Shown here: in pieces, positions 2-22,185 of the stretch
Layout: each line of letters starts with the position of its first letter
Position numbering within the stretch: the first letter of the stretch is position 1
Assembly: GCA_963770835.1 (NCBI GenBank)
Contig: CAVYRH010000010.1
Location: 1-64,000 of the forward strand
DNA length: 64,000 nucleotides
DNA from: an uncultured Pseudomonadota bacterium
Lineage (GTDB): Bacteria > Oederibacteriota > Muellerivitia > Muellerivitales > Muellerivitaceae
Reading direction: 5' to 3'
Position numbers and translations under genes: made by a program
Notes under the pieces: model-generated
Databases searched by the model: none
Told to the model about the DNA's origin: nothing
Seen by the model: only the letters and a program-made list of their open reading frames with translations

Positions 2-2608
2 AACAGCGGGACGAGCCAGGTATATGTGGCCGAATCGGGCATCAATCGCATCCAAGTATTTGATTACCATGGGGTTTTACAAAACGAATGGGGCGTAACT
101 GGGGCGGGGGGAAATGGAAAGTTTTACGGTTTAACGGATGTTGCTATCGACGCAAATGGCAATGTTTATGCCACGGACGACCTTACCGGATTGGTCCAGG
201 TCTTTTCGCCACAAGGCGGATTCATAAAGCAATGGGACGTTACAAATGGGACAAATCTTCTGACGGCGGAATTCGTCGCCGTGGACCCCATTGGACTTGT
301 ATACGTGTCCGATGGGTTTGGGGAAGTCGGGTTATTTGATACGTATGGATCATTGTTGGGTGCTGTCCCCATCGGCGAATCATCCACCAGCGGATCGGAA
401 GGAGTGGCTGTTGGGAATGGTGTTTGGTATGTAACGGACCCGGTAAATGACCTTGTGAATCAATACAACTTCTGCACCCTGCCTATTCCGACAGTCGCTG
501 TATCACCGACCCAGACTTCTACTTTTTCTCCTACGTCCACGCCAACATATGTTTCAACGTATACGCCGACCCAAACGCCAACATTTACTGTGACCAGCAG
601 TACAACCAACAGTCCCACAAACACACCTACAAATACTCCTACTGAAACAACGACAGATACGCCTACATCAACCCCGACAGCCACTCCGACCTCCACGGCA
701 ACCCTCACTGCAACGGATACGCCCACCAATACGGCAACGACCACAAACACCCCAACGGATACCGCCACAAACACGGCCACCAATACTCCAACGAATACAG
801 CAACCGCCACAGCCACTAACACCGCGACCGATACGGGAACGCCGACCCCCACCAATACGGCTACTTCTACTGCGACTTCGACGGCGACGGATACGGCCAC
901 TTCCACGGCCACCAACACTGCAACCTCCACTTCAACTTATACAGCCACGGATACGCCAACCTTAACAACTACTTCAACGCCAACACCTACCACCACCAAC
1001 ACGGCGACTGAAACGGCCACCAATACGGCTACGCCGACAACAACCAATACAGCTACGAATACGGCCACTCTGACAGCGACCTATACGGCCACGAATACAC
1101 CGACGAATACTCCTACCAACACGACAACCAATACAGCGACGAACACATTGACGGCTACGCCCTCAAGTACTCCTACGGGCACGTCTACGAATACGCCCAC
1201 CCTAACACCCACTCTTACAGCCACTTCAACGCCTACGTTTACTGCCACCAACACAGCGACTAACACAGCTACCAACACGGCTTCGCCGACAACAACCAAT
1301 ACCGCCACATCTACCGCTACGATGACGAACACGCAAACGCCGACTTACACGTTCACAAACACCAATACAGCGACTTTGACAGCCACCAAAACCGCCACGT
1401 TAACGCCCTCGAATACGCCCTCTCCGACGCCGACGAAAACTCCAACCAATATATTGACGGCGACGCCATCAAGTACTCCTACGGGTACCGCCACGAAAAC
1501 TGCCACCATTACTCCGACCTATACCAAAACTTCGACACCCACTCCGGTACTTTCCACCGCCACCAAGACTCCCACCCGCACCCCCACGGGCACGTTCACC
1601 AAGACCTTCACCCCGACCTTTACCTATACAAAGACCCTCACACCCACCATCACGCCAACGCCCAGCCCCACCACGGCCTGCGGGACCAACAACACCGCCC
1701 TAGCCCTCTTGGAGGAATACACCAGTTCCTGCGGCTCCAACTCGGTCTACCACCTCTTCGCCGTCGTCAATAACGGGGCCGCCGTCACCCTTTCGGACAT
1801 CACCATCAAATTCTGGCCCTATGACACCTCGGGGGTGAGCCTGGTGGGGCAGATCACCACGGGCGGGTGCGTTTGGAACCCCACCTGCTCCCACAACTTG
1901 ACGGGGGTGTCCATGTCGGCAATTAATTTCTCTCCAGCCTGCGGCCCAACCACTACCCAGATGGCGAACTGGGAAATGACCGTTTCCACGACTGATACGA
2001 CGGTCTTGAGCGGAGGGACCAGTTGGGTGGGCCTCCAAACCCTGGTCAACCGGTCCGACAGCCAGCCTTTCGTGCCGGGAACCTCCTATTGGTACAGCCC
2101 TTGTGTCCTGACCTCGACTTATTCCACCAACAGCCATTACGCCATTTATTTGAAAGGGAACCTGGTGACGGCCTCAGGCGGAGTGCCGCCTTCCTGCCGG
2201 CCTTTGCCGACTTGCACGCCGAAACCGGGTGGAGCCATGCCGATGCTCAAGGGCTCATCGCTGGAAGGCGGCTATACCCCGACGGAAACCCCGACGCCGG
2301 TTCCAACCCGTGGCGCCTTGTTGCAGTCCGTTGTGGCGGCCCCCAACCTTTCCACGAACGGCCAGCCCATCCGGTTCCTCGTGAACTTGAACGGACCCGC
2401 GCAAGTTAGGTTGAGCCTTTTCGCCCTCACCGGGGAACAGGTTTACAGTGCCCAAGCCGGGGGAAGCCAGGGATTGAACACGCTCGTTTGGAATCTCCAA
2501 AACAACGCCCGCCAGTCGACCGCCAGCGGTCTCTATGTCTATGTCCTGCGTGTCAATGACGATTCGTCCCAGGAAATGCGTGTGGGAAAAATCGTCGTCC
2601 TGCGATAG
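2..2608 (+). CDS. Large secreted protein (5'-partial): NHL repeats, about 400-aa Thr/Pro linker, CBM3-like domain, C-terminal FlgD-Ig/T9SS-CTD-like domain
   Basis: Frame is open from base 2. NHL-type repeats (DVAIDANGNVYATD...VQVFSPQGGFI); TPT/TAT linker; CBM3-like 'VVNNGAAVTLSDITIKFW'; tail 'AAPN...LVWN...ASGLYVY...GKIVVLR'. Confidence 0.85.
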   Translation, partial: NSGTSQVYVAESGINRIQVFDYHGVLQNEWGVTGAGGNGKFYGLTDVAIDANGNVYATDDLTGLVQVFSPQGGFIKQWDVTNGTNLLTAEFVAVDPIGLVYVSDGFGEVGLFDTYGSLLGAVPIGESSTSGSEGVAVGNGVWYVTDPVNDLVNQYNFCTLPIPTVAVSPTQTSTFSPTSTPTYVSTYTPTQTPTFTVTSSTTNSPTNTPTNTPTETTTDTPTSTPTATPTSTATLTATDTPTNTATTTNTPTDTATNTATNTPTNTATATATNTATDTGTPTPTNTATSTATSTATDTATSTATNTATSTSTYTATDTPTLTTTSTPTPTTTNTATETATNTATPTTTNTATNTATLTATYTATNTPTNTPTNTTTNTATNTLTATPSSTPTGTSTNTPTLTPTLTATSTPTFTATNTATNTATNTASPTTTNTATSTATMTNTQTPTYTFTNTNTATLTATKTATLTPSNTPSPTPTKTPTNILTATPSSTPTGTATKTATITPTYTKTSTPTPVLSTATKTPTRTPTGTFTKTFTPTFTYTKTLTPTITPTPSPTTACGTNNTALALLEEYTSSCGSNSVYHLFAVVNNGAAVTLSDITIKFWPYDTSGVSLVGQITTGGCVWNPTCSHNLTGVSMSAINFSPACGPTTTQMANWEMTVSTTDTTVLSGGTSWVGLQTLVNRSDSQPFVPGTSYWYSPCVLTSTYSTNSHYAIYLKGNLVTASGGVPPSCRPLPTCTPKPGGAMPMLKGSSLEGGYTPTETPTPVPTRGALLQSVVAAPNLSTNGQPIRFLVNLNGPAQVRLSLFALTGEQVYSAQAGGSQGLNTLVWNLQNNARQSTASGLYVYVLRVNDDSSQEMRVGKIVVLR

Positions 2609-3444
2609 GAAGGGGACCAACTGGCCACCCTCCGCCAGATGTATTCCGAAACGATAGTCAATTCCCGAAATACAAAGGGCCTTCGGCCCGAGTAGAATTT
2701 GGCACTAAGCTTTGCTTGCTTGAGGGCTGGGTACCATCCGGTTGGCGGCCACCGGCCCCACCACGGGGGCCAGCCGGACCCTGTTCCAGTACCAGTTCCC
2801 CCACTACACCACCCGGTTAAGCGACCTTCTGATAGCCAGGGTGTGCTATGCCCAAGAAGAACGGCCCGCTATGAATTCAAAGGAGAAAACGGGGCGGGAA
2901 ACACTCGTGAAATCATTTCAGCAAGGAATGGCAATGGTTTTGGCGATGCTCCATGGAAGTAAAACTTCCGCGCCATGGAAGTCCAAAAATAAAGTTTTCC
3001 CTTTGAATGGGCCTGTTTTTCCTCGCTCCGATGGCGAACCCCCCTATCTACGCATCAAGTGATGATGCTAGAAGCGATAGGGGGGTTCGCCCTCTCCGCG
3101 AGGAAAAACCTAAAAGTATCAAGGACAAGGACTTGATGCGTATTGAAGATTGGTAAGGACAGTAAAAAAGGCAAAAGCAAACATAGAAAACCGAAGTGGT
3201 AGGACGGTATGGAGGTGGCAGGGGTATTCGATGGGGTTCTAGGTAAAGCAAACCTTAGGTGGATTCGTGAGTGTTGGGTGGTGAGTGAAGGGGTTGGGTG
3301 GTAGGAGGAAACGGCGGGGTTGCTGGTGTAGGGTGCGGGTATGAGGAACCAACGGCAAAGACAAACCCTGGAAGTCCCTGGAACCAAGCTTCCTGGAAAA
3401 CCCCCAGGAAGCCTGGTTCCGGTCACCCGTGGGGAGTGTGTTTC

Positions 3445-3768
3445 TTAAACGGTTTTGACGGATAAAAGTAGGACCTCAAGAAGCAGGCAAAAAAACATCC
3501 CACCTAGCCCCAATACCAGGAATAGCCGGATGATTTTGGGACGGTTGGGATCGTTGACGGCGGCTTTACCTGAATACAAGACCCATAGCGAATAGTTGGT
3601 GGTCGGGAAAAGAACGGCCTGTAAACCAATGAGGTGGGGAAGAGTTATGGGGAAAAGGAAAGTGCCGGAAATACAGACGGTCAACACGCAAAAGAGGTTG
3701 GCCGCCAGGACCCTGTTTTTAAGAGGATTGAACATGGATTTAATATCCCCTTGGTTTTCCATACCCAA
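3445..3768 (-). CDS. Hypothetical small membrane protein
   Basis: 107-aa ORF with 2-3 hydrophobic segments; no family recognised. Confidence 0.35.
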   Translation of the reverse strand: MGMENQGDIKSMFNPLKNRVLAANLFCVLTVCISGTFLFPITLPHLIGLQAVLFPTTNYSLWVLYSGKAAVNDPNRPKIIRLFLVLGLGGMFFCLLLEVLLLSVKTV

Positions 3769-4711
3769 GGGAATTTAACACAAAGGGCGGAGGAAGATAA
3801 AAGAAAGTCATGTTTAAGGGGGGAACGCTCCAAGGAAAACCGCCTTGGAGCGTGGGCCTTCCCCCTGGGCCAAGCCGCCCGAAAATCACGGGCGTCCAGG
3901 CCCACCCCTTTCCTCGGGGACGTTGTCCCCAAACCCCGACAAGGGGGAAGTAACCCCCCTTGAACCTCCAAAACCTTCCTTGAAGCGATTGAGGTTTAGG
4001 GAGCCGCTTCCCATCCATTTGCCTTTGGGGACCCCGCCAAGCCGAAAATCCCCTCCCCGTCTTGCTTGCCAGCCAAACTAAGTTAGCCCTCCGGGGGATG
4101 GAATTTTAGAGGCGACAATCCGGGTCGGGGATTTCGGATTGGCACTCCCCAAAGGCGTCTCCCCGCCTGGGCCACGGACAAATGCGGCCCTGGCAGGTCG
4201 CCGGTAAATGGATGGGAGGTTTGAGTCCTCAGTAAGCGCTTTTCCCCCCGGCAAATTTCGGCGTGACATGACAAAACCGCCTCGGTTTGCCGTTGGGAAA
4301 AGCGCCTTCGGGTATCGGGGATTCGTTTGAACCTTCGTTGTGGATCTTAGGTGTAGTTCCTTCCTGAAGTTCAGTCGCAAACCCATAAAGCAGACATAGA
4401 GGTCCGGTAGTTGAGGACTTAGGACGATGGGTAGTTTCGGGAGTCCATCCCGAGGTGCAATAGGGCTTTGTCTCCATGAACCGGCCACCCTTGCAAGGGC
4501 AACTTTTGCGCCAGCCAAAGAAGGGCTGTCACAAAAGTCGAAGGGTGGCCTTTCTTTTCTTCCTTCCGGTTGGTTTCCGCTTTCTTCCAAGCACGGACTC
4601 CCAAAACTCCCGCTTTGCCTTCCCCCTCCCCCCTTGGCTTGTGAGGGGGGAGGGGGAAGGCGGTTTTTTAAAGGCGCAAAGCCTTCAAAAAAATAAAGGG
4701 GGTGATGGCGG

Positions 4712-4861
4712 ATGGAACAGGACACGAAACAGGAAGGGAACTTGGAGGGCTTGGAGCCCCAGGGACCGCCGATCAAGGGAATACAAGCCGGGGGCTGGAA
4801 GGTCACGGACGAGGAGATCGACTTGGTTCTCAAGAAGCTTGAGGAAGGTTGGGGGTTTTAA
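4712..4861 (+). CDS. Small hypothetical protein (49 aa, MEQDTKQEGN...VTDEEIDLVLKKLEEGWGF), absent from the ORF track
   Basis: Purine-rich RBS upstream; its TAA overlaps the AGGAGG RBS of the next gene. Confidence 0.45.
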   Translation: MEQDTKQEGNLEGLEPQGPPIKGIQAGGWKVTDEEIDLVLKKLEEGWGF

Positions 4862-4870
4862 GGAGGGGTT

Positions 4871-5101
4871 ATGGCGCATCCATCTTTTCGGGTCGGCAAG
4901 TTCAAGGTCTTGGGCCGGTATGAAATCCACTTTGGAAGGGAGGAAGGGTTCTTCTTTTACGAGATCGAGGACCTGGAAACCTTGGCCGTGGTGGACGTGA
5001 AGGACGGCTTGACTGAGGGCGAATTCTTGGAAGCGGTGGGATGCGCCATGAACCCGATGGAGTTTTTCGTTTTTCAAAAGCTTGTCCACTCAATCGCATA
5101 A
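4871..5101 (+). CDS. Small acidic hypothetical protein
   Basis: AGGAGG RBS; its stop abuts the RBS of ardC. Confidence 0.6.
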   Translation: MAHPSFRVGKFKVLGRYEIHFGREEGFFFYEIEDLETLAVVDVKDGLTEGEFLEAVGCAMNPMEFFVFQKLVHSIA

Positions 5102-5110
5102 GGAGGGTCT

Positions 5111-5371
5111 ATGAAGCGCAACATCGCCGAGGAAATCACCAGCCGGGTCTTGGAGGACTTGGAGAAGGGAGTCGCGCCCTGGGAGAAGCCCTGGAAGCAG
5201 GGGCGGGGGCTCCCCCTGCCGGTCAACGCCGCAACCAAAAAGCGGTACCGGGGAATTAATGTTTTTGTCCTTAATGCCGCGTCCCGGATTATGCCGCGTG
5301 GCTCCAGGATTCCCGTTGAAACGGGCCCCAAAGCCACGCAGTCATTCGGCATAAAACTTAGAGCTGCTTGA
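5111..5371 (+). pseudogene. ardC: ArdC/DUF1738 antirestriction ssDNA-binding protein, N-terminal fragment truncated after about 54 codons
   Basis: Typical ArdC start 'EEITSRVLEDLEKGVAPWEKPW...PVNAATKKRYRGINVFVL'; similarity stops at 5271, where a RIT-type end begins. Confidence 0.85.
5272..5354 (+). mobile_element. Orphan RIT-type terminal sequence
   Basis: TAATGCCG-N9-TTATGCCG (5272-5296) plus inverted CGGCATAA (5347-5354). Confidence 0.7.
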
Positions 5372-5464
5372 GGTGTAGACATGACCTCAGGGATTTGGTG
5401 GGCTTCCGCCGGGCCGTGTTATTTTTGCTCCTTTGCAGGAAATTCCATCGGGAGGAGCAATGAA

Positions 5465-5743
5465 ATGAGATCACTAGAAGCAGGCAGTGGGCAGGCTGAA
5501 AGAGGGACGATAAATGGTCCCCTTGGTAAAAGGAACGGTTATTTCGTGCCCCGCAAGGTGGAGGTTTTCAGCGACGTAAGGGGGCAGGTCAATCTTTGGG
5601 TTTTTTCGAGGCAGGTGGGCAAGACCGAGCCCATTTCCTTGAGGGTTTCTAGGCAGGACGCGGCCTCTCTTGGAAAGCAACTTCTTGACCTTGGAGGCAT
5701 CCGAAAGGTTTCAAGCTTTGAAAGGAGGAGCCCCCATGAATGA
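5465..5743 (+). CDS. Hypothetical protein
   Basis: GGAGGAG RBS upstream; overlaps the start of the next gene. Confidence 0.55.
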   Translation: MRSLEAGSGQAERGTINGPLGKRNGYFVPRKVEVFSDVRGQVNLWVFSRQVGKTEPISLRVSRQDAASLGKQLLDLGGIRKVSSFERRSPHE

Positions 5744-5993
5744 AACCGTTGAAATCCCCAAGATCAAGAAGGCCGTGCGGGAGGAGGTTTTTTCCCAAGG
5801 GTTCCAAAGGAGGGTCGTCACCAAGGTTTATTTCAGGGACGGCTCCACCCTCACCTTTTCGGGCCAGCTTTCCCGCAAGGAGATCGTCTTTAACGGGTAC
5901 TACCAGAAATGCCGGGACGCGGGGATGGGCGTTGAGGAAGCGGCCCTCTTCGCCGGAAGGGGGCGGGTAGAACCCTTGAAACAAAACTCTTGA
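5736..5993 (+). CDS. Hypothetical protein
   Basis: AAAGGAGG RBS before ATG 5736; followed by a strong hairpin. Confidence 0.6.
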   Translation: MNETVEIPKIKKAVREEVFSQGFQRRVVTKVYFRDGSTLTFSGQLSRKEIVFNGYYQKCRDAGMGVEEAALFAGRGRVEPLKQNS

Positions 5994-6005
5994 GGAAGGA
6001 ACCGG

Positions 6006-6048
6006 GGCTTACCGGCTGGGGGCCGACCCCAGCCGGTAAGCCTCTTTT
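6006..6048 (+). terminator. Probable intrinsic terminator
   Basis: 16-bp perfect stem GGCTTACCGGCTGGGG/CCCCAGCCGGTAAGCC followed by TCTTTT. Confidence 0.6.
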
Positions 6049-6101
6049 ACAAATCGCCGGGGCATTGGAAAGCCCCGGCCAACGTGGAAAGGAGATCAGG
6101 A

Positions 6102-6323
6102 ATGAAATTCACTTTTAACGCCACCCGGAAAAACAAAAGGGGCTTCCCCATTTTGATTCACCAGCTTTGCGATGAATTCAGGAATTTTTACCGGGCCAAA
6201 ACCTTCGCCATGGGCTTGGCAAAAAGGTGGGAATGGCCCGTTGAAATTTACTCAGAAGGGGTATTGTTGGAGGTCGTTGGAACCCAGCCGGATAAGCCCG
6301 CGGGGAACGAGGCCGGAAAATGA
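6102..6323 (+). CDS. Hypothetical protein
   Basis: AAAGGAG RBS; ATGA overlap with the next gene. Confidence 0.55.
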   Translation: MKFTFNATRKNKRGFPILIHQLCDEFRNFYRAKTFAMGLAKRWEWPVEIYSEGVLLEVVGTQPDKPAGNEAGK

Positions 6324-6514
6324 ATCCTTTAACGAATGAGGAGGAAAGGGAACTTGCCGCCGCCCAATTGGAGGCTTGCAAGAACATTCCCGACCAATTG
6401 GCGAAGATCAACGAGAGTTTGGGGCTGGTCAACACGAACCTGGAACGGCTGGCTTTGTGGTTTGAGAATTGGGCTCCCATGAGAGGTGCCGCCAAAAAAG
6501 TGAAGGGCCCATGA
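6320..6514 (+). CDS. Hypothetical protein (short coiled coil)
   Basis: ATGA translational coupling on both sides. Confidence 0.55.
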   Translation: MNPLTNEEERELAAAQLEACKNIPDQLAKINESLGLVNTNLERLALWFENWAPMRGAAKKVKGP

Positions 6515-6584
6515 AACCCGTTAAGCCTATCCCCAGGAAGGAGAGGCCCGGAAAGATGGGGTTTGATAACGACTACTTCTTCCA
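6511..6584 (+). pseudogene. 5' part of a small Cys-rich gene split by the RIT element (3' part at 14241-14370)
   Basis: ATGA-coupled start; joining 6584 to 14241 restores a 67-codon ORF. Confidence 0.65.
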
Positions 6585-6764
6585 TTATGTGAAGCTTCAC
6601 ATAACTAGTGTTATGTGGAGTGTTTAATTATGTGGAGTACGCTCCAAATTGCCTTCATTTCTTGTTAATCATCCAGGGATTCACCCTTTTTCACTTCACA
6701 TAATTCAAGTTGGTAGACTGCTTTTCCTCTTCAAATTTGAGAGAGGAGAAAAAGGAGCACTACC

Positions 6765-8012
6765 ATGCTTGAAACCTATTACAAAACAAAAAGGACATTG
6801 GCGGATTACCGCCGAGGGCCACTGGGTCCTCATTTCGATGGATTCGCGGCTTATCTCAAGGAAAGAGGTTATTGCACTTCATTGGCGATAGATACACTTA
6901 GCCGTTGTTGTGCCTTCAATTATTTTCTTATTGAGAAAAGAATTTCTTCGTGCCGGTTAATCCGATCATCACTCATCAAACCATTCCTGACCTACTATCT
7001 GCCGGACCCTCAAAACATCAGGAATGAGCGTCCGAAATATCTTGTGACGAGAGCAATTCAAAAATTATTCGCTTATTTGACCGATGAGGGGGTCGTAACT
7101 GAAAAACCAGTTATCAAACCATATAACTGGATGCTTGAACCCTATTTGAAAATTTTGAAGGAGGACTACGGGCGTACGGAACTTACCATTGAAAGAACGC
7201 GCAAAAGGCTTTCCCTTTTCTTGGAGGGTATAGGAAAAAAAGTTCGCCCAAAACGGATGAAATCCCTCAAAGCTATTGACATCGAAGATTACGTCAAAAA
7301 GCATTTGCATGAAAGTCCAAGCAACTTGAGGCAATTAGCAGGCACACTGCGTTGGTTCCTAAGGTTCTGCGCCCGTCAGAAGTACACTACTGACGATTTA
7401 TCCGGTGTGATTCCATCCATTCCATCCTACCGTTTAGCCAGCCTGCCACAAGGGATTGAGGAATCCAAGTTACAACGTATCCTCAATGTGGTTTCCCGTT
7501 CCACTCCAATTGGTTCCAGGGATTACGCCATTCTGTTGGCCATGATGGCTTACGGCGTCCGGGGAACCCAAGTTGTGGAATTGTTGTTGGAAGATATCAA
7601 CTGGGAACGATCCACCATCCGTATACGCGCAAGAAAAGGCGGCAAGGAAGTAGAGCTTCCCCTTTTGGAATCGGTGGGCGAAGCCATCTTGGCTTACTTG
7701 CGGCACCGTCCAAAAAGTCCATTCCGAAATGTATTTCTTTCAGTTACAGCCCCCCATGCCCCGTTGAATTGTCAAACCGTAAGTTACTTGGCACAAACCT
7801 ACATGGCTAAGGCCGGAGTGAAGATTCCCGGCGGGGGCGCAAGAACGTTCCGCCATTCACTAGCCATCCGGGCCTTAGCGCAAGATAGTCCGATGAAGGC
7901 TATCGCCGACATCCTTGGCCACAGGTATCTGAACACAACCTTTATTTATGCCAAAGCCGATCTCAAAACCCTTCGCCAAGTGACAATGCCGTGGGTGGGG
8001 GTGCAATCATGA
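6765..8012 (+). CDS. Tyrosine recombinase, RIT subunit A
   Basis: 'GPLGPHFDGFAAYL' N-terminus, 'GSRDYAILL', 'YGVR', 'FRHS', 'ILGH...TTFIYAK'. Confidence 0.92.
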   Translation: MLETYYKTKRTLADYRRGPLGPHFDGFAAYLKERGYCTSLAIDTLSRCCAFNYFLIEKRISSCRLIRSSLIKPFLTYYLPDPQNIRNERPKYLVTRAIQKLFAYLTDEGVVTEKPVIKPYNWMLEPYLKILKEDYGRTELTIERTRKRLSLFLEGIGKKVRPKRMKSLKAIDIEDYVKKHLHESPSNLRQLAGTLRWFLRFCARQKYTTDDLSGVIPSIPSYRLASLPQGIEESKLQRILNVVSRSTPIGSRDYAILLAMMAYGVRGTQVVELLLEDINWERSTIRIRARKGGKEVELPLLESVGEAILAYLRHRPKSPFRNVFLSVTAPHAPLNCQTVSYLAQTYMAKAGVKIPGGGARTFRHSLAIRALAQDSPMKAIADILGHRYLNTTFIYAKADLKTLRQVTMPWVGVQS

Positions 8013-9013
8013 AAACTTATATTTTTCACAGTCCGGTGGCCGCGAGGTTGCAAGCCTTTTTGGATATGCGTCGCGCATACGGATGGAAAGCAGTCGCGCT
8101 CCCCAAAAAACTTCAATATATCGACAAATTTCTTGCGACCGTACTTAAGCCAGGACAGACCATCACACATGAGATCGTGAATCGGTGGTTCAAAAGCATT
8201 GAGGGACTTGCCGTTAACACTCGAGCCGCCCGGATTACTGTTTTTCGGCAATTTTGTCGTTATCTCAAAAATTTCGAGCAGGGGACATTTCAGATCCCAT
8301 ATGGCCTTTCGCCTAAGCAGACACGACCGATTCCCTATATCTACACAAAGGGTCAAATCCGAACCATTTTGGCCTCGATAAAGCGAATTGGGCCCAAAGG
8401 TTCTTTCCGTCCTGTCGTGATCTCAACTCTCATCGGATTGCTTTACAACGCCGGGTTGCGTATTAGCGAAGGATTGAAGTTGACATTGGGGGATATTGAC
8501 CTCAAACGAAGGTTACTTTTGGTCCGGCAAACCAAGTTCAAAAAGTCACGCTTGGTACCGCTTTCCATTTCCACCGTTCGAGTTTTGCGTTCCTACCTAG
8601 GCCGACGGCGGGCGGCAGGATTTTCCACCAATAAAAGCTCACCGGTTTTTATCCATCCTACTCACGATGGCAATGGGAAGTCTTACGAGCAATGTTTCAT
8701 TCGACAAATTTTTCGAAGAATCACGCGTAAAAAGAAAATCCGAGGGTTGGCAGGAAGGTGGGAACCGAGGATTCACGACTTGCGACACAGCTTTGCCGTT
8801 CATCGTCTAGCCAAATGGTATCGGGAAGGAGCCACCATTTCGTCCAAGCTTCCCCTGCTGTCAACCTATTTGGGCCATTCCAGCCTTACCGGTACGGAAG
8901 TTTATCTACGTGCCACCGCTGAACTTCTTTCAGAGGCCAACAAGAGATTTTGGAACCATTGCGCTTTACCTTGCGTGACCGGAACTCGAAAGGAGGCTGC
9001 CCATGTCCACTAA
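8009..9013 (+). CDS. Tyrosine recombinase, RIT subunit B
   Basis: 'GLRISE', 'TKFKKSRLVPL', 'IHDLRHSFAV', 'LSTYLGH...TEVYL'; ATGA overlap with subunit A. Confidence 0.92.
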   Translation: MKTYIFHSPVAARLQAFLDMRRAYGWKAVALPKKLQYIDKFLATVLKPGQTITHEIVNRWFKSIEGLAVNTRAARITVFRQFCRYLKNFEQGTFQIPYGLSPKQTRPIPYIYTKGQIRTILASIKRIGPKGSFRPVVISTLIGLLYNAGLRISEGLKLTLGDIDLKRRLLLVRQTKFKKSRLVPLSISTVRVLRSYLGRRRAAGFSTNKSSPVFIHPTHDGNGKSYEQCFIRQIFRRITRKKKIRGLAGRWEPRIHDLRHSFAVHRLAKWYREGATISSKLPLLSTYLGHSSLTGTEVYLRATAELLSEANKRFWNHCALPCVTGTRKEAAHVH

Positions 9014-10013
9014 TGTTGCTGTTCCTATCCGTGATTTCTTCGAAAAATACATAACCAGCGAACGGGGTTTGAGTTCTCACACAATTTTGGCTTACCGGGA
9101 TACTTGGAAATTATTCCTCGGTTTTGCGGCGGAATATCATCGAAAACCATGTGTGGAACTACAAGTGGAAGATATTGCCGCTGATACCGTTCGTCAATTC
9201 TTACTTCACCTCGAAAAAAAGCGACAGAATGGAATCCGAACCCGTAACGCAAGGCTCGCGGCGATTCGTTCCTTTTTCCGCTACTTGACATCTTTAGACC
9301 CGCGATTACTTGCCATCTCCCAAGCAGTGTTAGGGATTCCATTCAAACGGGAAGCCCATTCGGTCATGGGATATTTGGATCGGGAAGAAGTGATCCATTT
9401 ACTCAACCACATAAATACCAGGACATCCCACGGCAAACGCAACGAGGCCATTCTGCGGATGATTTACAACACCGGCGCACGGGCTCAGGAACTGATTGAT
9501 TTAGACGTTCCTCAAATACGGTTCAACCGTCCCTACATGGTTCGAATACTTGGGAAAGGGCACAAAGAGCGGACATGTCCCCTTTGGCCCGAAACCGTGG
9601 ACGCGTTGAAAATCTATCTGGAAGAACGTGGTGTACGATTTTCGGAGCGTGTTCCTCTTTTCCTGAACGCCAAAGGGCAAAGACTTTCCCGTTTTGGTTT
9701 ACGGTATCTGATTATCCAATGGGTCGGCATGGCGGCCAAAACCGCTCCAACCCTTCTCGCTCGAAAGATTGGGCCACATACCTTTCGACACACGACAGCC
9801 ATGCATTTGCTTCAATCCGGCGTCGATCTCAATATGATCCGATCCTGGCTTGGCCATTCTTCCATCGAGACCACCCATGGTTACATTGAACTCGATATGG
9901 AAATGAAACGGAAAACGCTTCAGTCCTGTGAAAAATTTCTTCCGAAAGTTGGCAAACATGGGCCTTCGTGGCAAAGGGATAAAGGCATTCTGGAGTGGCT
10001 GTCACGCCTTTAG
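9003..10013 (+). CDS. Tyrosine recombinase, RIT subunit C
   Basis: 'RTRNARLAAIRSFF', 'TGARAQE', 'GKGHKERTCPL', 'PHTFRHTTAMHLL', 'WLGH...TTHGY'. Confidence 0.92.
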   Translation: MSTNVAVPIRDFFEKYITSERGLSSHTILAYRDTWKLFLGFAAEYHRKPCVELQVEDIAADTVRQFLLHLEKKRQNGIRTRNARLAAIRSFFRYLTSLDPRLLAISQAVLGIPFKREAHSVMGYLDREEVIHLLNHINTRTSHGKRNEAILRMIYNTGARAQELIDLDVPQIRFNRPYMVRILGKGHKERTCPLWPETVDALKIYLEERGVRFSERVPLFLNAKGQRLSRFGLRYLIIQWVGMAAKTAPTLLARKIGPHTFRHTTAMHLLQSGVDLNMIRSWLGHSSIETTHGYIELDMEMKRKTLQSCEKFLPKVGKHGPSWQRDKGILEWLSRL

Positions 10014-10249
10014 TTATGTGAAGTGAACTTGTTGGCACGGTTGTCGAGGCGTCCATCGGGCAAACTGGTTCATGTTAAAATCGCTGAAAACTTGCCCTGC
10101 CTAGGCTGGGAAACAGGGCGAGTGGGTCGTGCGAAACGCAAGAGAGGAAATCCAAAAAAATCTTAAGGAAGGGGCAATACCTGGGATATTTTTAATAAAA
10201 AAGATGATTACAACGGAAAATTGAAAACGTCTAAACATCTTTCCGGTTC

Positions 10250-13200
10250 TTAAAATGCCCAACTCATTCCACCTCCATAGGTGTTCAAGCTGAGAGCGTT
10301 GTTGTAATTTCCATTGAAGCCCACGAACAGATGGAAAACCTTTGAAAGCTGGAGATCAAGGCCGAGCCCTAAACCGTACAGAAAAGGATCCTCCGTCCCT
10401 CCTTGCATGGAGAATAACGCTCCAGGAGCCCCGGTGAAGCTTCCATGAATATTAGAAATATTGCCGGACATAACCGGGCCCGCTGTGGCTGAAAAAGAAG
10501 GTGTCAAGGAAGCATCCTTGCCGAGCGAAATATTACGAGCCATGTTGATTCCGACCTCGCCTCCCAGACAATCGACCGACCAGCTGTTTACCTGTAAATT
10601 AAGTGATCCGGCCCCGGTTTCGGTAAAGCCATTCATCCAAACCTTGTTATAGCGGAGGCCTGCGAAAGGCTTCATCGAAAAACCCGAGTCCTCATAATCG
10701 TAAGAGGCTTGCAAGGCCGCTGTCATCTCGTTTCCCGTGTTGGCGGCATTGGCTGTCGCCGTATCGGTGCCGATGCTGACGACTCTCTCGGTCTTCAACT
10801 GGTCCCATCCCCCATCGGCCAAGAGGGTGAAGTGAAATTTCCCTCTCCGAAAGTCACTGAAAATGCCGGCTTGGTAGCTGTCCACAGTGGTTTCCGAGTT
10901 TCCGCCATCGGTGGAAGTCAGGCCCGAGTGAAGATACGAGCCAGTCAAACCCATCTTGAGGTCTCCTGCCAGGGGAAAGTCGTAACCGCTTATATAGCTG
11001 TAGGAATTAACGGCGTATCCCACGAAATTATTGGAACCATAAACGGTGCCATAGGATCCTGAACTTTGCATCCAAAAACCCGGGAAGTCGTTAGGAGAGG
11101 AAGTCCCGCTGGACGCAGTCATGGGGACTTGAACGTCCGACATAATGGAATTGCTTGGAGACACCTGCCAGTTTTGTGGAAGAGACAAACCGATCCCCTG
11201 TTCCCTTGCCATCAATTGGTCGGCAGACTGGTTTAGCTGGCCTAACAGAACCAAGTTGATAGGGATATAGGAAGAACCGCTCATCTGGTTCATGGAGGCC
11301 TGCGCTTGGCTGGGGGAAAGGTTGTAAAGTTCGCCTAATTTGTCCACGAAATCATCGGTTCCGAGGTAAATCCCTTGATCCAAGGCCTGAGCCAATTGAA
11401 TTTGGTTTTGAGTCGAAGCCAGTGAATGGAAGTTGATGTCATTGCGGGTTAAAACCAGGGTGACCGAGTTGTTTCCGTAAAGAAGACTCGGCGTCAAATT
11501 GGTCAGACTGTCAGAAACGCTTGAAAAGGTGCCCGCCAAAGTTGAGGCGGCGGAAAGAACCAGATACTTGGTGCGAATACTATAAATACCCGGATCGGAG
11601 GTGACCGTCATTGCCCCGTTCAAGCTCGCGTTGAATGTAGCTAGTTCGGCCGAATTTCCGTTGCCTGGGGCGGTCTCCACCAGGAAAGTCCCGCCTGGAA
11701 GCTGGTCAAATTGAGCCACATTAAAACTACCGGAGGTTCCCTGGAGTTTTAATGTGCCGCTGTTGGTGACAACGCCAAAAACGGATCCGTAACCGGTTAA
11801 TTGGCCCCCGCTTGCGATGGAAACGGGACAATTGATTAGGGCTTCCGTGTTTCCGATGTCCCCCACTTCCAGCGTGCCGTTCAACACGGTCACCCCTAAA
11901 GCATTCGAGGCCGTGCCGTCCAGGGTGAGAATTCCCTGGCCTGTTTTGGTGAAGCCACCCGTACCGGTGATGTTCCCGGCCCAAGTGGAATCAAACCCGT
12001 TTGAATCGAAAATCCCGCCATTGGCAGTCACGAGGAGGTTATTCGAGAGGCTGACTCCCGAAGCGGCTTGAAGGGTGCCTGCGTCCAGCGTAAGGGTCGA
12101 TCCGGCGGCCCCTAAGGCGCCAATGGAACCTACTGCTAACAGGCTTCCAGAAACGGAAGTCCCACCGCTATAGGTGTTCGTGCCGGTCAAAGTCAAAGCC
12201 CCGGCCCCTGTTTTGACTAGTTCACCCGTGCCCGATATCACGCCGCCGAAAGAGCTACCCACCGCCCCGTCAAGAATTAAGGTCGCCGTTTCCATGGAAA
12301 CCGCCCCCGTGCCGGACAGGCTGCCTAGTGTCAGGTTATTCCCGTTCAAGTCCAGGGTACCCGCGCTCTCAATGGAAATAGCCGCGTCGTTCGGCACCAT
12401 CGTGTCCGCAAATACCAAAGAGCCCTGGCGGATGTCGATCTGTGTGGAACCGGGGCTGTAGCCGTAACTAGACCCATCCAAGGTCAGGGTTCCCGCGCCG
12501 GTCTTGATAAAAGGGGATAGCCACATGACTCCGCCCGTCCAAAGGACGTTGTAGCCATTGGTGTCGATGGTTCCCCCGCCCGTATCCAGGTAGAGGGTCT
12601 TGGTGAAGGTAACGGAGGCCCCGGCTTGGAGAGTCCCCCCTTCCATCCAAACATAGCCACCGGTCCCCAGGTTCTGGTTGGACGCAACATTAAGGATTCC
12701 CCCGCTGATGTAGGTGTACCCGCTGTAAGTATTTAAGCCAGCCAGAGTCAGGGTTCCAGCCCCCGATTTAAAAAGGTAACCAAGGTTGCCACTGATGACT
12801 CCCGAAAAGGTGGAATTGAAGCCGTCGGTGTTAATGGTTCCAATACCATCGGGCCCAAGGAGAATATTGCCTGTGAATGTCATGGCATCCAGGGTTTGAA
12901 GGGTGCCGCCGCTCAAGGCAAGGGGCCCCGTCCCCAAATTGTCTTCGTTGTATATGCTGAGGATTCCGGCGGCTAGCGTGGTGCCGCCGCTGTAGGTATT
13001 AACACCCGATAGGGTCATTGGATTATTGCTTGTTTTAGTCAGGCTTCCGGTGCCGGATAGGATGCCCTCGAAGTCGGTGAAGTCACAATCGAAGGTGGTG
13101 CTACCCGAAAGCACAAAATCGCGTGAAGTGGTAAGACCATAGGATGCGAAGGTCGCGTTGTTCACCGCCACGATTCCGGCCGGGTTTCCCAATGCGGCAT

Positions 13201-13966
13201 CGTTGGAGACATACAACTCGCCCCCATTGACGGTCGTTCCCCCGCCATAGCTGTTGGCCCCGTTCAATTCGAGGGTGCCGTTTCCGACTTTCGTCAGGCC
13301 GCCGGCCCCCTCAATCTCTCCATAAAGGATCAAGGTATAAGCGTTCGTGTCGAAGGCACCACCCTGGGATGTCAAACTCACCGGGCGATAACTGTAAATG
13401 TAATTGCCCCCAGCTTGCAGGGTGCCGCCATCCAGGGTCAACAGGCCTTGCGCCGTTCCCAGGTTATTGTCGCTCGTAATGTTTAAAACCGTTCCGCTTC
13501 CAACATAGGTTCCACCCGTATAACTGTTGGTGCCACTCAAGTTCAAGGCCCCTCCGGGAATGGAGGAAATCACCGACAAACCCCCGCTTCCTGTTACGGC
13601 TCCTCCCCAAGATGAATCAAACCCGTTCGTGTCGAAGGTACCATTGCCGCTTCCCAAAACCATGGTCCGGGTGGGGTCAAAGGAAATGCCCGCGGAAGTT
13701 TGCAATGTTCCATCGTCCAGGGTGAGGGTTGTTCCGGAAGCTCCCAGTCCGCTGTCGGCACTTACTGTCAGCGTTGCGCCTCCGCTAACAGTGGTCTGGG
13801 CATGAATGGGTAATTGGGCAAGTATAAAAAACACAATTCCAAAGCTGATTCGAAAAGTTTGAGAAGAAATTAAAAGAGCGGTTTTGTATTTAGAAGCAAG
13901 TTTTTTCATCATACAAGGTCCCAAAGGATTTGTTTTGGCATCATTATTCGCAAACCATCTTGGCAA
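10250..13966 (-). CDS. Type Va autotransporter with passenger-associated beta-strand (PATR) repeats
   Basis: Signal peptide ending '...IHA-Q' (true start probably MMKKLASK); many 'LTKxGxGTLTLxGxNTYSGGT' repeats; C-terminal beta-barrel ending in Phe. Confidence 0.92.
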   Translation of the reverse strand: MPRWFANNDAKTNPLGPCMMKKLASKYKTALLISSQTFRISFGIVFFILAQLPIHAQTTVSGGATLTVSADSGLGASGTTLTLDDGTLQTSAGISFDPTRTMVLGSGNGTFDTNGFDSSWGGAVTGSGGLSVISSIPGGALNLSGTNSYTGGTYVGSGTVLNITSDNNLGTAQGLLTLDGGTLQAGGNYIYSYRPVSLTSQGGAFDTNAYTLILYGEIEGAGGLTKVGNGTLELNGANSYGGGTTVNGGELYVSNDAALGNPAGIVAVNNATFASYGLTTSRDFVLSGSTTFDCDFTDFEGILSGTGSLTKTSNNPMTLSGVNTYSGGTTLAAGILSIYNEDNLGTGPLALSGGTLQTLDAMTFTGNILLGPDGIGTINTDGFNSTFSGVISGNLGYLFKSGAGTLTLAGLNTYSGYTYISGGILNVASNQNLGTGGYVWMEGGTLQAGASVTFTKTLYLDTGGGTIDTNGYNVLWTGGVMWLSPFIKTGAGTLTLDGSSYGYSPGSTQIDIRQGSLVFADTMVPNDAAISIESAGTLDLNGNNLTLGSLSGTGAVSMETATLILDGAVGSSFGGVISGTGELVKTGAGALTLTGTNTYSGGTSVSGSLLAVGSIGALGAAGSTLTLDAGTLQAASGVSLSNNLLVTANGGIFDSNGFDSTWAGNITGTGGFTKTGQGILTLDGTASNALGVTVLNGTLEVGDIGNTEALINCPVSIASGGQLTGYGSVFGVVTNSGTLKLQGTSGSFNVAQFDQLPGGTFLVETAPGNGNSAELATFNASLNGAMTVTSDPGIYSIRTKYLVLSAASTLAGTFSSVSDSLTNLTPSLLYGNNSVTLVLTRNDINFHSLASTQNQIQLAQALDQGIYLGTDDFVDKLGELYNLSPSQAQASMNQMSGSSYIPINLVLLGQLNQSADQLMAREQGIGLSLPQNWQVSPSNSIMSDVQVPMTASSGTSSPNDFPGFWMQSSGSYGTVYGSNNFVGYAVNSYSYISGYDFPLAGDLKMGLTGSYLHSGLTSTDGGNSETTVDSYQAGIFSDFRRGKFHFTLLADGGWDQLKTERVVSIGTDTATANAANTGNEMTAALQASYDYEDSGFSMKPFAGLRYNKVWMNGFTETGAGSLNLQVNSWSVDCLGGEVGINMARNISLGKDASLTPSFSATAGPVMSGNISNIHGSFTGAPGALFSMQGGTEDPFLYGLGLGLDLQLSKVFHLFVGFNGNYNNALSLNTYGGGMSWAF

Positions 13967-14240
13967 TCATTATCCCACATTTAATTGGCTTCATTTGAAA
14001 AAATGTTTTTCGAACGCTAATGACCGGGGATGCAGCAGAGGAAAGCTTTTAAGTTTTGGGGAATTTAATAACCTTGGAAATTCAAAAGGGATATAAATAC
14101 TTTTCTCATCTCCAAATCGGAAAAAGTATGTCAGTCCACCACGCTAAATTATGTGAAGTAAAAAGAGTGCGTTTCCGGCTATTCAAATAAAAATAAGAGT
14201 TAATCAGAAGTCACTCCACATAACTAGCTACTGCACATAA

Positions 14241-14370
14241 CATCATCAGCCGTTGCACTTGTTGCGGGGCGGTGATGGAGAAATGGAATTTTGAACTCTG
14301 GAAAAGCCGGTGTTCCGATTGCGCCCCGGAACTGTACCAGGACCAGGGGGAACCGGCATCCGGTGATTGA
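14241..14370 (+). pseudogene. 3' part of the RIT-split Cys-rich gene
   Basis: IISRCTCCGAVMEKWNFELWKSRCSDCAPE...GD*, in frame with 6511-6584. Confidence 0.65.
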
Positions 14371-14682
14371 ATGAAAGCCGTCCGCCACCTTTGCCGGTGT
14401 GGACTTCGTGACCAAAGGTGGCGACGCATTAAGATTAAGTATGGGAACGATCAAAGATGGACGATTTCGGGGTAGCTCCAAGGGCTGCCCCCTTTTGTTT
14501 GGGATTGGCCGCAAAGTCCCTCCGAAGCCGGGAAGCTTTTTTACGGGAACTTCCGGGAGGGCAGACAGTAAAACAACAAAAGTCTAATTTTGGGATTCAG
14601 GAGTTGGTGAAATTTCCATTACAACCACTTGTTTGCGGAAGTAAAATCCCTGAGCCCGCAATCCAAATTGAATGGAGTTTTT

Positions 14683-20832: not shown

Positions 20833-22185
20833 GTGGAAGGGAGTCAATCCTATTCCATCCGGAGAATCGTGGTTATGGGGATTCGGGATTTCAAATATGT
20901 ATTCCTTTGCTTTCTTTTGTTTTTTGGCGTTTTTTCTGCGAATGCCCAATGCCCGGTTCCCACGCTGACGCCCGTGAGTTGGGGCGGCGGTTCCGTAACC
21001 TTGAGTTCCGGCTCGGGTTCCATCACGCTGATCGGTACAGGAAACTATCAATCAGTAACCCAAACATTCGAAAATGCCGGGGCGGCTTATGTCACCCTCG
21101 CCGGGAATGACCAGGTACAGGCTCAACTGGAAAGTGTGACCGGCTCCGTGGGAGTCAGTACTGTGGCCGGAATCTTCATCCGTGGGGGAACCGCTTCCGG
21201 GGGCGATGGGGGGTTATTGTGGGCCCGTGGGCCTTCCCTTACCACCTCCCAGTTCGCCGATAGGACCCTTGACGGTCCGTTGACCGTGTTAGAGTCCGCC
21301 AGTGTTACCATACCCTACTGGTTGCGGCTGCAAAACAGTGACTACGTCCTTTACCCTTCGGTCTCAACGGATGGAGCCAACTGGACCCCCCTACCGACGC
21401 CTTCCTACGACCTGAGTAGCGATCCTTTTTTTGTCGGCAACACTATTATTTACGGACTTATCGTTTGGAGCGGGTCTAACAGCTCGCCCACGACGGCCGT
21501 TTTCGGCAATGTTTGTATCAGTTCTCTCCCCACTTTTACCCAAACCCCCTCCTCGACCCCCACTCTCACCCCGACTCCGACCCATACCTTCACCCCCACC
21601 TTCAGCCCAACTTCCACTCCAACTTTAACCGTCACCTCTACTCTAACTTCCACGGACACTCTCACCCTAACCTCAACCCCCACTCTTACCCAGTCTCGAA
21701 CATTTACTTCGACTCCTACCCCTACATTTACCCCCACCTTCACCCCTACTCCGACTTCCACGAGCACCCTAACCTCGACCCCAACCATCACCCCAACCCT
21801 GACTTCCACCAGCACTCCTACCATTACGGCCACCCCCTCCAACACCCTCAGTCCTATCTCAACCTTTACTCCTACCAGCACTTTGATCTTCACCTCAACC
21901 CCCACACCCCCGCCCGGCATACTGGTCTGGCCCAACCCTTTTACTCCCCAGCTTCCCACCAACAATACCACCCACTTCACTCTTCCTTTGGGCCACGGGG
22001 CGGGGCGCATCCTAATCGCGGACCTGAGGAGAAGAAAAATCCGGTCCTTGGATTTCTCCCCGGGCCATGATGTTCAATGGGACGGCCATGATGACGGCGG
22101 CAATATCGTTTCTTCCGGTGTCTATCTCTATTTATTGGAATCGAACGGGACGGTGCGCCGCGGAACCGTTACCGTGTTGCGATGA
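20833..22185 (+). CDS. Secreted protein: beta-sandwich domain, Thr/Pro linker, T9SS type-B-like/FlgD-Ig C-terminal domain
   Basis: Signal peptide '...FSANA-Q' (start may be 20875); tail 'WPNPFTP...WDG...SSGVYLYL...RGTVTVLR'. Confidence 0.85.
   Translation: MEGSQSYSIRRIVVMGIRDFKYVFLCFLLFFGVFSANAQCPVPTLTPVSWGGGSVTLSSGSGSITLIGTGNYQSVTQTFENAGAAYVTLAGNDQVQAQLESVTGSVGVSTVAGIFIRGGTASGGDGGLLWARGPSLTTSQFADRTLDGPLTVLESASVTIPYWLRLQNSDYVLYPSVSTDGANWTPLPTPSYDLSSDPFFVGNTIIYGLIVWSGSNSSPTTAVFGNVCISSLPTFTQTPSSTPTLTPTPTHTFTPTFSPTSTPTLTVTSTLTSTDTLTLTSTPTLTQSRTFTSTPTPTFTPTFTPTPTSTSTLTSTPTITPTLTSTSTPTITATPSNTLSPISTFTPTSTLIFTSTPTPPPGILVWPNPFTPQLPTNNTTHFTLPLGHGAGRILIADLRRRKIRSLDFSPGHDVQWDGHDDGGNIVSSGVYLYLLESNGTVRRGTVTVLR

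Follow-up and report, generated by a model that had tools for sequence, protein, structure and literature searches.

A RIT-derived insertion with an autotransporter gene as cargo and two left-type ends in an uncultured Pseudomonadota bacterium

In the available parts of their main description, RIT elements are mobile elements of about 3,500 bp with a 28-29 bp repeat and a palindrome, which also form complex clusters on pHG1 and EbN1 (PMC3414803). The accessible sections of further papers report exonuclease-resistant RIT intermediates of unknown mechanism (PMC5737581), RIT subfamilies (PMC8138268; 10.1101/542381) and radC insertions (PMC2864759), state that RIT movement was not tested (PMC10214605) or call RITs 'involved in metal resistance', with Ricker 2013 and Mahbub 2023 as sources (10.1101/2024.06.12.598671). 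No account of cargo-bearing or composite RITs was found in the literature searched, outside of which stand Ricker 2013, Van Houdt 2009 and Mahbub 2023, which may describe cargo. Here, we analyse a block of 7.66 kb (6585-14240) that holds the recombinase genes ritABC together with an autotransporter gene, located in the first 64,000 nt of contig CAVYRH010000010.1 of an uncultured Pseudomonadota bacterium (assembly GCA_963770835.1), hereafter the window. Like RIT elements as far as PMC3414803 describes them, the block has three overlapping recombinase genes in the order A-B-C, terminal inverted repeats and a palindrome at one end, and it is inserted into a gene of a mobile island. Unlike them, it is 7.66 kb long, compared with about 3.5 kb, has a host gene as cargo, lacks a right arm of its own and has a far end of left type, with outer pairs of recombinase sites that are only 22/27 alike.

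The block 6585-14240 is inserted DNA, autotransporter included, because three relatives from the host family (G017, G002 and G004) keep the target gene free of any insert. The flanks in the window are the two halves of one small gene that runs uninterrupted in all three, which bears out the proposal of a previous note made from the letters alone (the sequence-only reading) that the RIT-bounded unit of 7.66 kb includes the autotransporter. The target gene, an open reading frame (ORF) that we label zinc-ribbon-like, is whole in G017 (55 aa, without a Pfam match) and G004 and carries a 1-nt frameshift in G002. The 42 residues to the right of the far end share 64% identity with G017, 66% with G002 and 41% with G004, and upstream the gene runs in these relatives into sequence resembling the left flank, in the same ArdC-type island. 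The distance from anchor to anchor is 42 nt in G017, 41 nt in G002 and 42 nt in G004 versus 48 - 6 = 42 in the window, i.e. the register is exact in two relatives and 1 nt short in the third. The target thus holds one 6-bp spacer, and after insertion one spacer lies at each end, the outermost ends of the block forming the target junctions. The bases to the right of the far junction read CAGCC versus CA(T/C)CC in 10/13 relatives (L021 and L023, which have double palindromes, set aside). A search with the 3' half of the target gene reached E 0.1 or better in 9/31 family genomes, our own included, five of the matches being weak (E 0.02-0.09). An autotransporter standing at this site without the RIT, which the sequence-only reading had named as evidence against itself, was found at none of the three empty sites, of which that of G017 lies on a contig of only 4.5 kb and that of G002 near a contig end. 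A paralogous island on contig C2 of the same genome was considered as an additional empty site and rejected, being without the target gene.

The three recombinase genes are adjacent, intact ORFs in A-B-C order (6765-10013) that overlap by 4 bp (A/B) and 11 bp (B/C), compared with the 4-8 bp given for RITs in PMC3414803. The best matches of each Rit protein are the proteins at the same position in the trios of pHG1 and Sphingobium herbicidovorans MH (30-32% identity for A, 34-38% for B and 37-45% for C), and the catalytic residues R160, R262-H263, H285 and Y294 (RitC numbering) are invariant in a 10-sequence alignment, with all three proteins intact. No RIT model of NCBIfam scored above its cut-off for the proteins of the block, and apart from the three Rit ORFs and the autotransporter no credible gene lies between the ends. 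Set against the definition of a RIT, i.e. about 3.5 kb without passenger genes, a palindrome beside one terminal repeat, and terminal repeats directly next to ritA and ritC, the block has the palindrome beside one terminal repeat (6585-6604) and a terminal repeat at ritA; at ritC only the inner site remains, the partner terminal repeat is a left-type end 4.2 kb from ritC, and the core, cargo included, measures 7,630 bp. The block is a real, RIT-derived, cargo-carrying insertion, and not a canonical RIT, since its size and its right end do not agree with the definition.

The usual anatomy of this RIT type was taken from relatives collected from the host family, metagenomes and genomes, several of which are near-duplicates, so that the 24 loci do not represent 24 independent events. 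The inner site follows the ritC stop within 2 nt in 24/24 loci (complete ritC end, >55% identity), and the outer pair lies 47-80 nt further on in 23 of them, the exception being L047 with about 200 extra bp. In that locus (region 4893-5213), the extra sequence sits between the ritC hairpin and the right outer pair and contains a short ORF. Among 18 relatives with both ends placed, 16 have a core span of 3,447-3,525 bp, with L047 (3,725 bp) and EbN1 plasmid 2 (9,560 bp, through nested elements) as exceptions. The 20-bp palindrome lies 6 bp beyond one of the outer pairs, which may be the pair to the left or to the right of the core, with 6-bp spacers at the junctions; L021 and L023 have palindromes at both ends. 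The outer pairs are 26-27/27 alike in the six closest two-ended relatives versus 22/27 in the window. Many relatives are inserted in radC (Pfam PF04002 confirmed for L018), and in a second, more distant RIT type the right end comes directly after ritC in 6/6 loci. Viral contigs yielded no match in a RitC search, and a pattern scan of them led to one compact RIT and to a further contig that is unrelated.

The window contains 12 copies of TTATGTG where 4.0 +/- 2.2 are expected, a number (12) reached by none of 100 shuffles, and ten of these sites fall inside the block, including one within ritC (9408) without an assignable role. The 4.58-Mb genome has just two pairs with a period of 17 bp, i.e. 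with the two 7-mers 10 nt apart, one at 6611 (+) and one at 14217 (-), and the inner 10-bp site is 56 nt from the pair at the left end and 55 nt at the far end. The sequence-only reading had placed these sites and the mirror symmetry of the ends correctly, including the paired sites and the inverted inner site, with spacings (9 nt within the pairs and 57-58 nt to the inner site) that need correction; the symmetry is larger than it had claimed, i.e. 144 bp at 70% (6609-6752 vs 14101-14242), and continues about 48 bp inside the inner site. The 20-bp palindrome is a separate feature outside the left pair and is similarly placed beside an outer pair in 15/18 tabulated relatives.

What that reading had regarded as the element's own right terminal repeat, displaced by 4.2 kb, is of the opposite type, since the far end resembles left ends and has no match among 23 right ends. 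Read inwards, it matches the five closest of 15 left ends with z-scores of 3.1-6.0 in the spacer and 5.6-8.5 in the 50 nt inside its inner site, compared with -1.1 to 3.2 and 0.8 to 3.3 for the ten more distant left ends, and at most 2.6 and at most 1.2 for the right ends. The likeness reaches the ribosome-binding site of the ritA leader (~14101) and then stops; the leader of the block's own ritA shows 80-86% identity over 50 nt to the five closest left ends. The right-end hairpin is missing from the far end. On this resemblance, the far end is an inverted left-type end and not the displaced right end of the same element. Its outer pair shares 26/27 positions with the left pairs of L004, L016 and L019 and 22/27 with the block's own left pair, and over the whole end it has 60% identity to the block's own left end versus 65-72% to those of L016, L019, L002 and L004. 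In a left-end tree of 15 rows and 143 columns, which omits the near-duplicates L003, L023 and L031 and includes L071, grouping the two window ends together was weakly rejected (approximately unbiased test, p 0.029). Because it is closer to the left ends of other elements and the clade with the block's own left end is weakly rejected, the far end most likely stems from a second, related RIT. Plasmids gave no DNA match to it.

A functional right end near 10.08 kb, which the sequence-only reading had likewise named as evidence against itself, was not found either. With a matrix built from relatives' sites, no outer pair, not even a degenerate one, was detected in 10025-14140, where the best score is 6.4; the true window pairs score 30.7 and 32.3, and none of the 28 distinct training pairs falls below 25.5. 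The right-end hairpin of L016 (z -2.3) has no counterpart after ritC in the window (z -0.7). The approximately 240 bp after ritC gave no informative match in the 30 other family genomes; a 14-bp match to an arm of G014:C16 was out of register, with E about 1, and was rejected as due to chance.

The cargo is an autotransporter with PATR passenger repeats and a beta-barrel (Pfam PF03797 and PF12951), likely an adhesin-type surface protein. Relatives of it occur in 22/30 other family genomes, at 36-37% identity at best, and the best database match is 38%. With a G+C content of 0.536, compared with 0.545 in the host and 0.479 in the rit genes, it resembles a gene taken from the chromosome of a related host.

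Further loci with unusual pairs of RIT ends offer a comparison. A pattern search in two other phyla (401 + 135 genomes) gave three convergent pairs, each on one contig, two of them compact and one of 6,474 bp (G604:C193, L101, 610-7115); of the 12 pattern-match regions examined, 10 had no Rit matches above 30% identity. In G604:C193, the insertion divides a DUF932 gene, and its two junctions have an identical 6 bp; the gene's 5' part matches PF06067, and its short 3' part is in frame by translation, without a Pfam match alone. The insert begins with a palindrome and a left end whose ritA is reduced to a decayed stub; then come ilvD, lysR and a second RIT with a degenerate left arm of its own (65% over 266 columns to the first left end), ritABC and an intact right end. 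This locus is a direct-orientation version of the architecture of our block. On plasmid pHG1, two RITs with 94% identity over 3,379 bp stand tail to tail, in inverted orientation and about 0.8 kb apart, which shows the geometry from which an inverted composite could arise. The clusters on pHG1 and Aromatoleum aromaticum EbN1 plasmid 2 resemble our block in that RITs stand in inverted pairs, truncated or nested; unlike in the block, their ends enclose other mobile elements, and the available parts of the account describe neither host cargo nor an empty site (PMC3414803). The RIT of EbN1 plasmid 2 (L096, NC_006824.1, 7462-17048) is of the TTATGTG type and extends to 9.56 kb through nested RIT genes and an IS1634. 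Finally, L071 (G014:C16, 4262-7773) is a RIT with two identical right-type arms, in which the left-type leader resumes just inside the inner site. This arrangement suggests that a copy of one arm took the place of the other, with a break at the inner site, and it follows from the two right-type arms that an end may bear either type of arm. Directly upstream in G014:C16 (683-3362) is another RIT trio, which is distant.

The observations are an empty site, the loss of the right arm, a far end of left type and three intact recombinases. How these came together is a matter of reconstruction, and we give a probability of roughly one half to the reading that the block is a composite transposon, formed from two related RITs that formerly stood, inverted to each other, on either side of a host autotransporter gene. 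The recombinases RitA, RitB and RitC would have bound the two outermost arms and recombined them at the 6-bp spacers that border the palindrome and the far pair on their outer sides, as we infer from the general chemistry of tyrosine recombinases and the spacer pattern. Palindrome, ritABC and cargo would then have been released as one unit, probably a circle, and would have entered the target gene at a 6-bp spacer, so that each end kept one spacer. Before or after this move, deletions would have removed the inner right arm of the first element as well as the genes and the right end of the second, and this loss of inner parts would tie the cargo to the recombinases. The second element is known here only from a 140-bp left end, its genes being ones that we infer. 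In favour of this reading speak the empty sites, the usual target half beyond the far junction, the left-type far end, the absence of any leftover right arm and the intact catalytic residues, as well as the parallel in G604:C193, the inverted pair on pHG1 and the two right-type arms of G014:C16. It is tempting to extend this to a wider proposition, which we regard as evenly balanced, i.e. that RIT arms are interchangeable, that any two compatible arms (left+left, left+right, right+right) bound a mobile unit and that neighbouring RITs form gene-capturing composites that shed their inner ends. On this view, the left+left case would be seen in our block, left+right from different elements in G604 and right+right in G014.

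Several points weigh against the composite transposon. Spacers S1-S3 (Table 1) are discordant, with 3, 3 and 5 mismatches, compared with at most 2 for the best pair in 15/15 palindrome-bearing relatives; this discordance is the main sign of, and fits, a more complex history of several steps. The model needs two deletions, neither of which left a visible trace, and the junction on the ritC side falls exactly at the inner site; the arm swap in G014:C16 implies that inner sites may be exchange points. The left-end tree is poorly supported at the relevant node and based on 143 columns. No donor locus of the autotransporter was found in the 30 other family genomes or by database search. The G604 locus is direct and not inverted, and no second element with two left ends was found. 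The block is present as a single copy, without a second insertion, a circle or an empty site in its own genome, and the 7.66-kb unit was not found at a second site there or in 40 relatives, which are only a sample. The weight of the finding is limited by this single copy, and the reads, none of which lies at the junctions, speak neither for nor against current activity.

Among the alternatives, a nesting in two steps survives best, although we consider it unlikely. A gene-less derivative of the second RIT, i.e. its left end, the autotransporter and its right end, would have inserted first, in reversed orientation and moved in trans; later, the ritABC element would have docked at the palindrome junction, and one deletion would have taken both adjacent inverted right ends. 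RIT ends would have carried the cargo in this case too, never together with these three genes. Such a history would account for the discordant spacers, for the position of the autotransporter downstream of the far-end leader, in the place of ritA, and for a far outer pair that is nearer to the relatives than the own left pair is. Moreover, a single deletion of the near-palindromic junction would take out both right ends, and RITs do stack beside or inside one another in G014:C16 and EbN1 plasmid 2. However, neither a second right arm nor a second palindrome has left a remnant in 10025-14140, no gene-less cargo derivative was present among the loci examined and the replacement of the genes is still unexplained.

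Rather improbable is a late capture without RIT activity, in which one or two RITs were already on site and the autotransporter later replaced the middle by illegitimate or homology-assisted recombination, so that the block was never mobile as a unit. The lack of ends of the cargo's own, the single copy and the G+C content of the cargo, which is close to that of the host and unlike that of the RIT genes, are in line with this, as is EbN1 plasmid 2, where nested elements show that RIT ends can spread apart after insertion. Against it, neither flanking homology nor a carrier element was seen, and in G604 RIT ends enclose host genes while the 6 bp at the two junctions match cleanly.

The sequence-only reading had suggested as a possibility a cassette at the right inner site, whose integration would have duplicated the 11-bp site and pushed the right end outwards, and this is now very doubtful. 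The 11-mer TTATGTGAAGT is indeed present at 10014 and 14149 and equals the inner site, and the ritC-side junction at that site, the break at the inner site in the G014:C16 arm swap and the extra bases between ritC and the right pair in L047 would suit a cassette. However, TTATGTGAAGT is also the inner site in 6/15 left ends and 17/23 right ends of the relatives. By these counts, the direct repeat is just the conserved inner binding site and no mark of a cassette, since an 11-mer that is ordinary at both end types yields such a direct repeat with any inverted left end. The cassette mostly fails because the element's right arm should follow the second 11-mer, but a left arm does, without hairpin and with a left-type leader on the cargo side; furthermore, none of the 24 relatives has a cassette between duplicated inner sites. 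An assembly chimera of two loci is the least credible explanation. In its favour, no read or contig of three DNA runs bridges either junction; against it, the flanks are halves of one gene in register, which is not expected of a chimera, the contig has 215 kb, and run X1, which may be the source sample, has identical pieces of flanks, rit genes and autotransporter at similar depth.

The features of the block and its junctions are listed in Table 1. A scan for sigma-70 promoters and terminators gave background levels, and the hairpin 3' of the autotransporter was not called in the terminator scan.

Table 1. Features of the insertion and its target gene (window coordinates)
Feature	Position	Strand	Remarks
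Target gene, 5' half, small Cys-rich ORF	6511..6584	+	last 6 bp (6579-6584) are crossover spacer S1
Perfect 20-bp palindrome	6585..6604	.	two back-to-back TTATGTG sites; missing from empty sites, hence inserted DNA
Spacer S2	6605..6610	+	6 bp, between palindrome and left arm
Own left arm	6611..6703	+	outer pair 6611-6637, 56-nt spacer, inverted inner site 6694-6703
ritA leader	6704..6764	+	predicted promoter and ribosome-binding site; putative function
ritA	6765..8012	+	415 aa tyrosine recombinase, PF00589
ritB	8009..9013	+	334 aa; 4-bp ATGA overlap with ritA
ritC	9003..10013	+	336 aa; 82% identity to L016/L017
Orphan right inner site	10014..10025	+	abuts ritC stop; hairpin and outer pair of relatives gone
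Cargo segment	10026..14100	.	no terminal repeats of its own or target duplication seen
Hairpin followed by UUUU	10090..10123	-	3' of autotransporter; possible weak terminator, z -2.16
Autotransporter	10250..13909	-	intact, 1219 aa; PF03797, PF12951
Remnant ritA-type leader	14101..14148	-	ends at ribosome-binding site; no ritA after it
Far arm, inverted left-type	14149..14240	-	inner site 14149-14158, 55-nt spacer, outer pair 14214-14240
Spacer S3 and target gene, 3' half	14241..14370	+	S3 is 14241-14246 (6 bp)

Window positions 4600-6584 and 14371-14500 represent the leading region of a mobile island with a truncated ardC (5111-5371, PF08401; 332 aa in G002), small ORFs and a conserved stem-loop (~14382-14425) common to G000:C2, G017, G002 and G004. 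Positions 2401-5271 recur with 97% identity at G000:C9:1-2871, and C2:190.6-191.8 kb holds a paralogue of 78%. Such mobile islands carry RITs of two types in several family genomes. In G017, the left end and palindrome of a different RIT type (L070, G017:C202, 2340-2389) lie about 370 bp downstream of the empty target gene, the right end of that RIT being probably on C444. Large Thr/Pro-repeat proteins with a strong strand skew are encoded near the island, at 26-2608 and 20833-22185.

Tn10 and Tn5 are composite transposons with inverted flanking elements, one of which is defective. On the composite reading, the block would resemble them in that two related elements flank a cargo, the outer ends are used and one element provides the enzymes; it differs in having tyrosine recombinases and 6-bp spacers instead of a DDE transposase and target duplication, and in that its second element is cut down to a 140-bp end. 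With GInts, strand-biased circularising elements (SE) and Tn554, as far as they are covered in the available parts of PMC10214605 and PMC5385486, it shares several tyrosine recombinases, cargo, a target preference and a 6-bp junction spacer. According to the same sources, these systems depend on an additional fourth or helper gene (GinD, Srap, TnpC), and a large recombinase is among their proteins, whereas the block has only three Rit proteins of 334-415 aa, no profile search having been aimed at GinD or TnpC.

An element bounded by left ends on both sides and lacking a right arm predicts that the hairpin and the spacer of the right end are dispensable and that only the site geometry matters, i.e. 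palindrome, 6-bp spacer, paired outer sites and inner site. If the composite origin is true, the boundaries of RITs would be under-called wherever annotation stops at ritC, and RITs would spread host genes, e.g. those for surface proteins and metabolic enzymes. If, moreover, RIT arms are interchangeable, composites of neighbouring RITs would be a general route of gene capture for a family that has been described as cargo-free.

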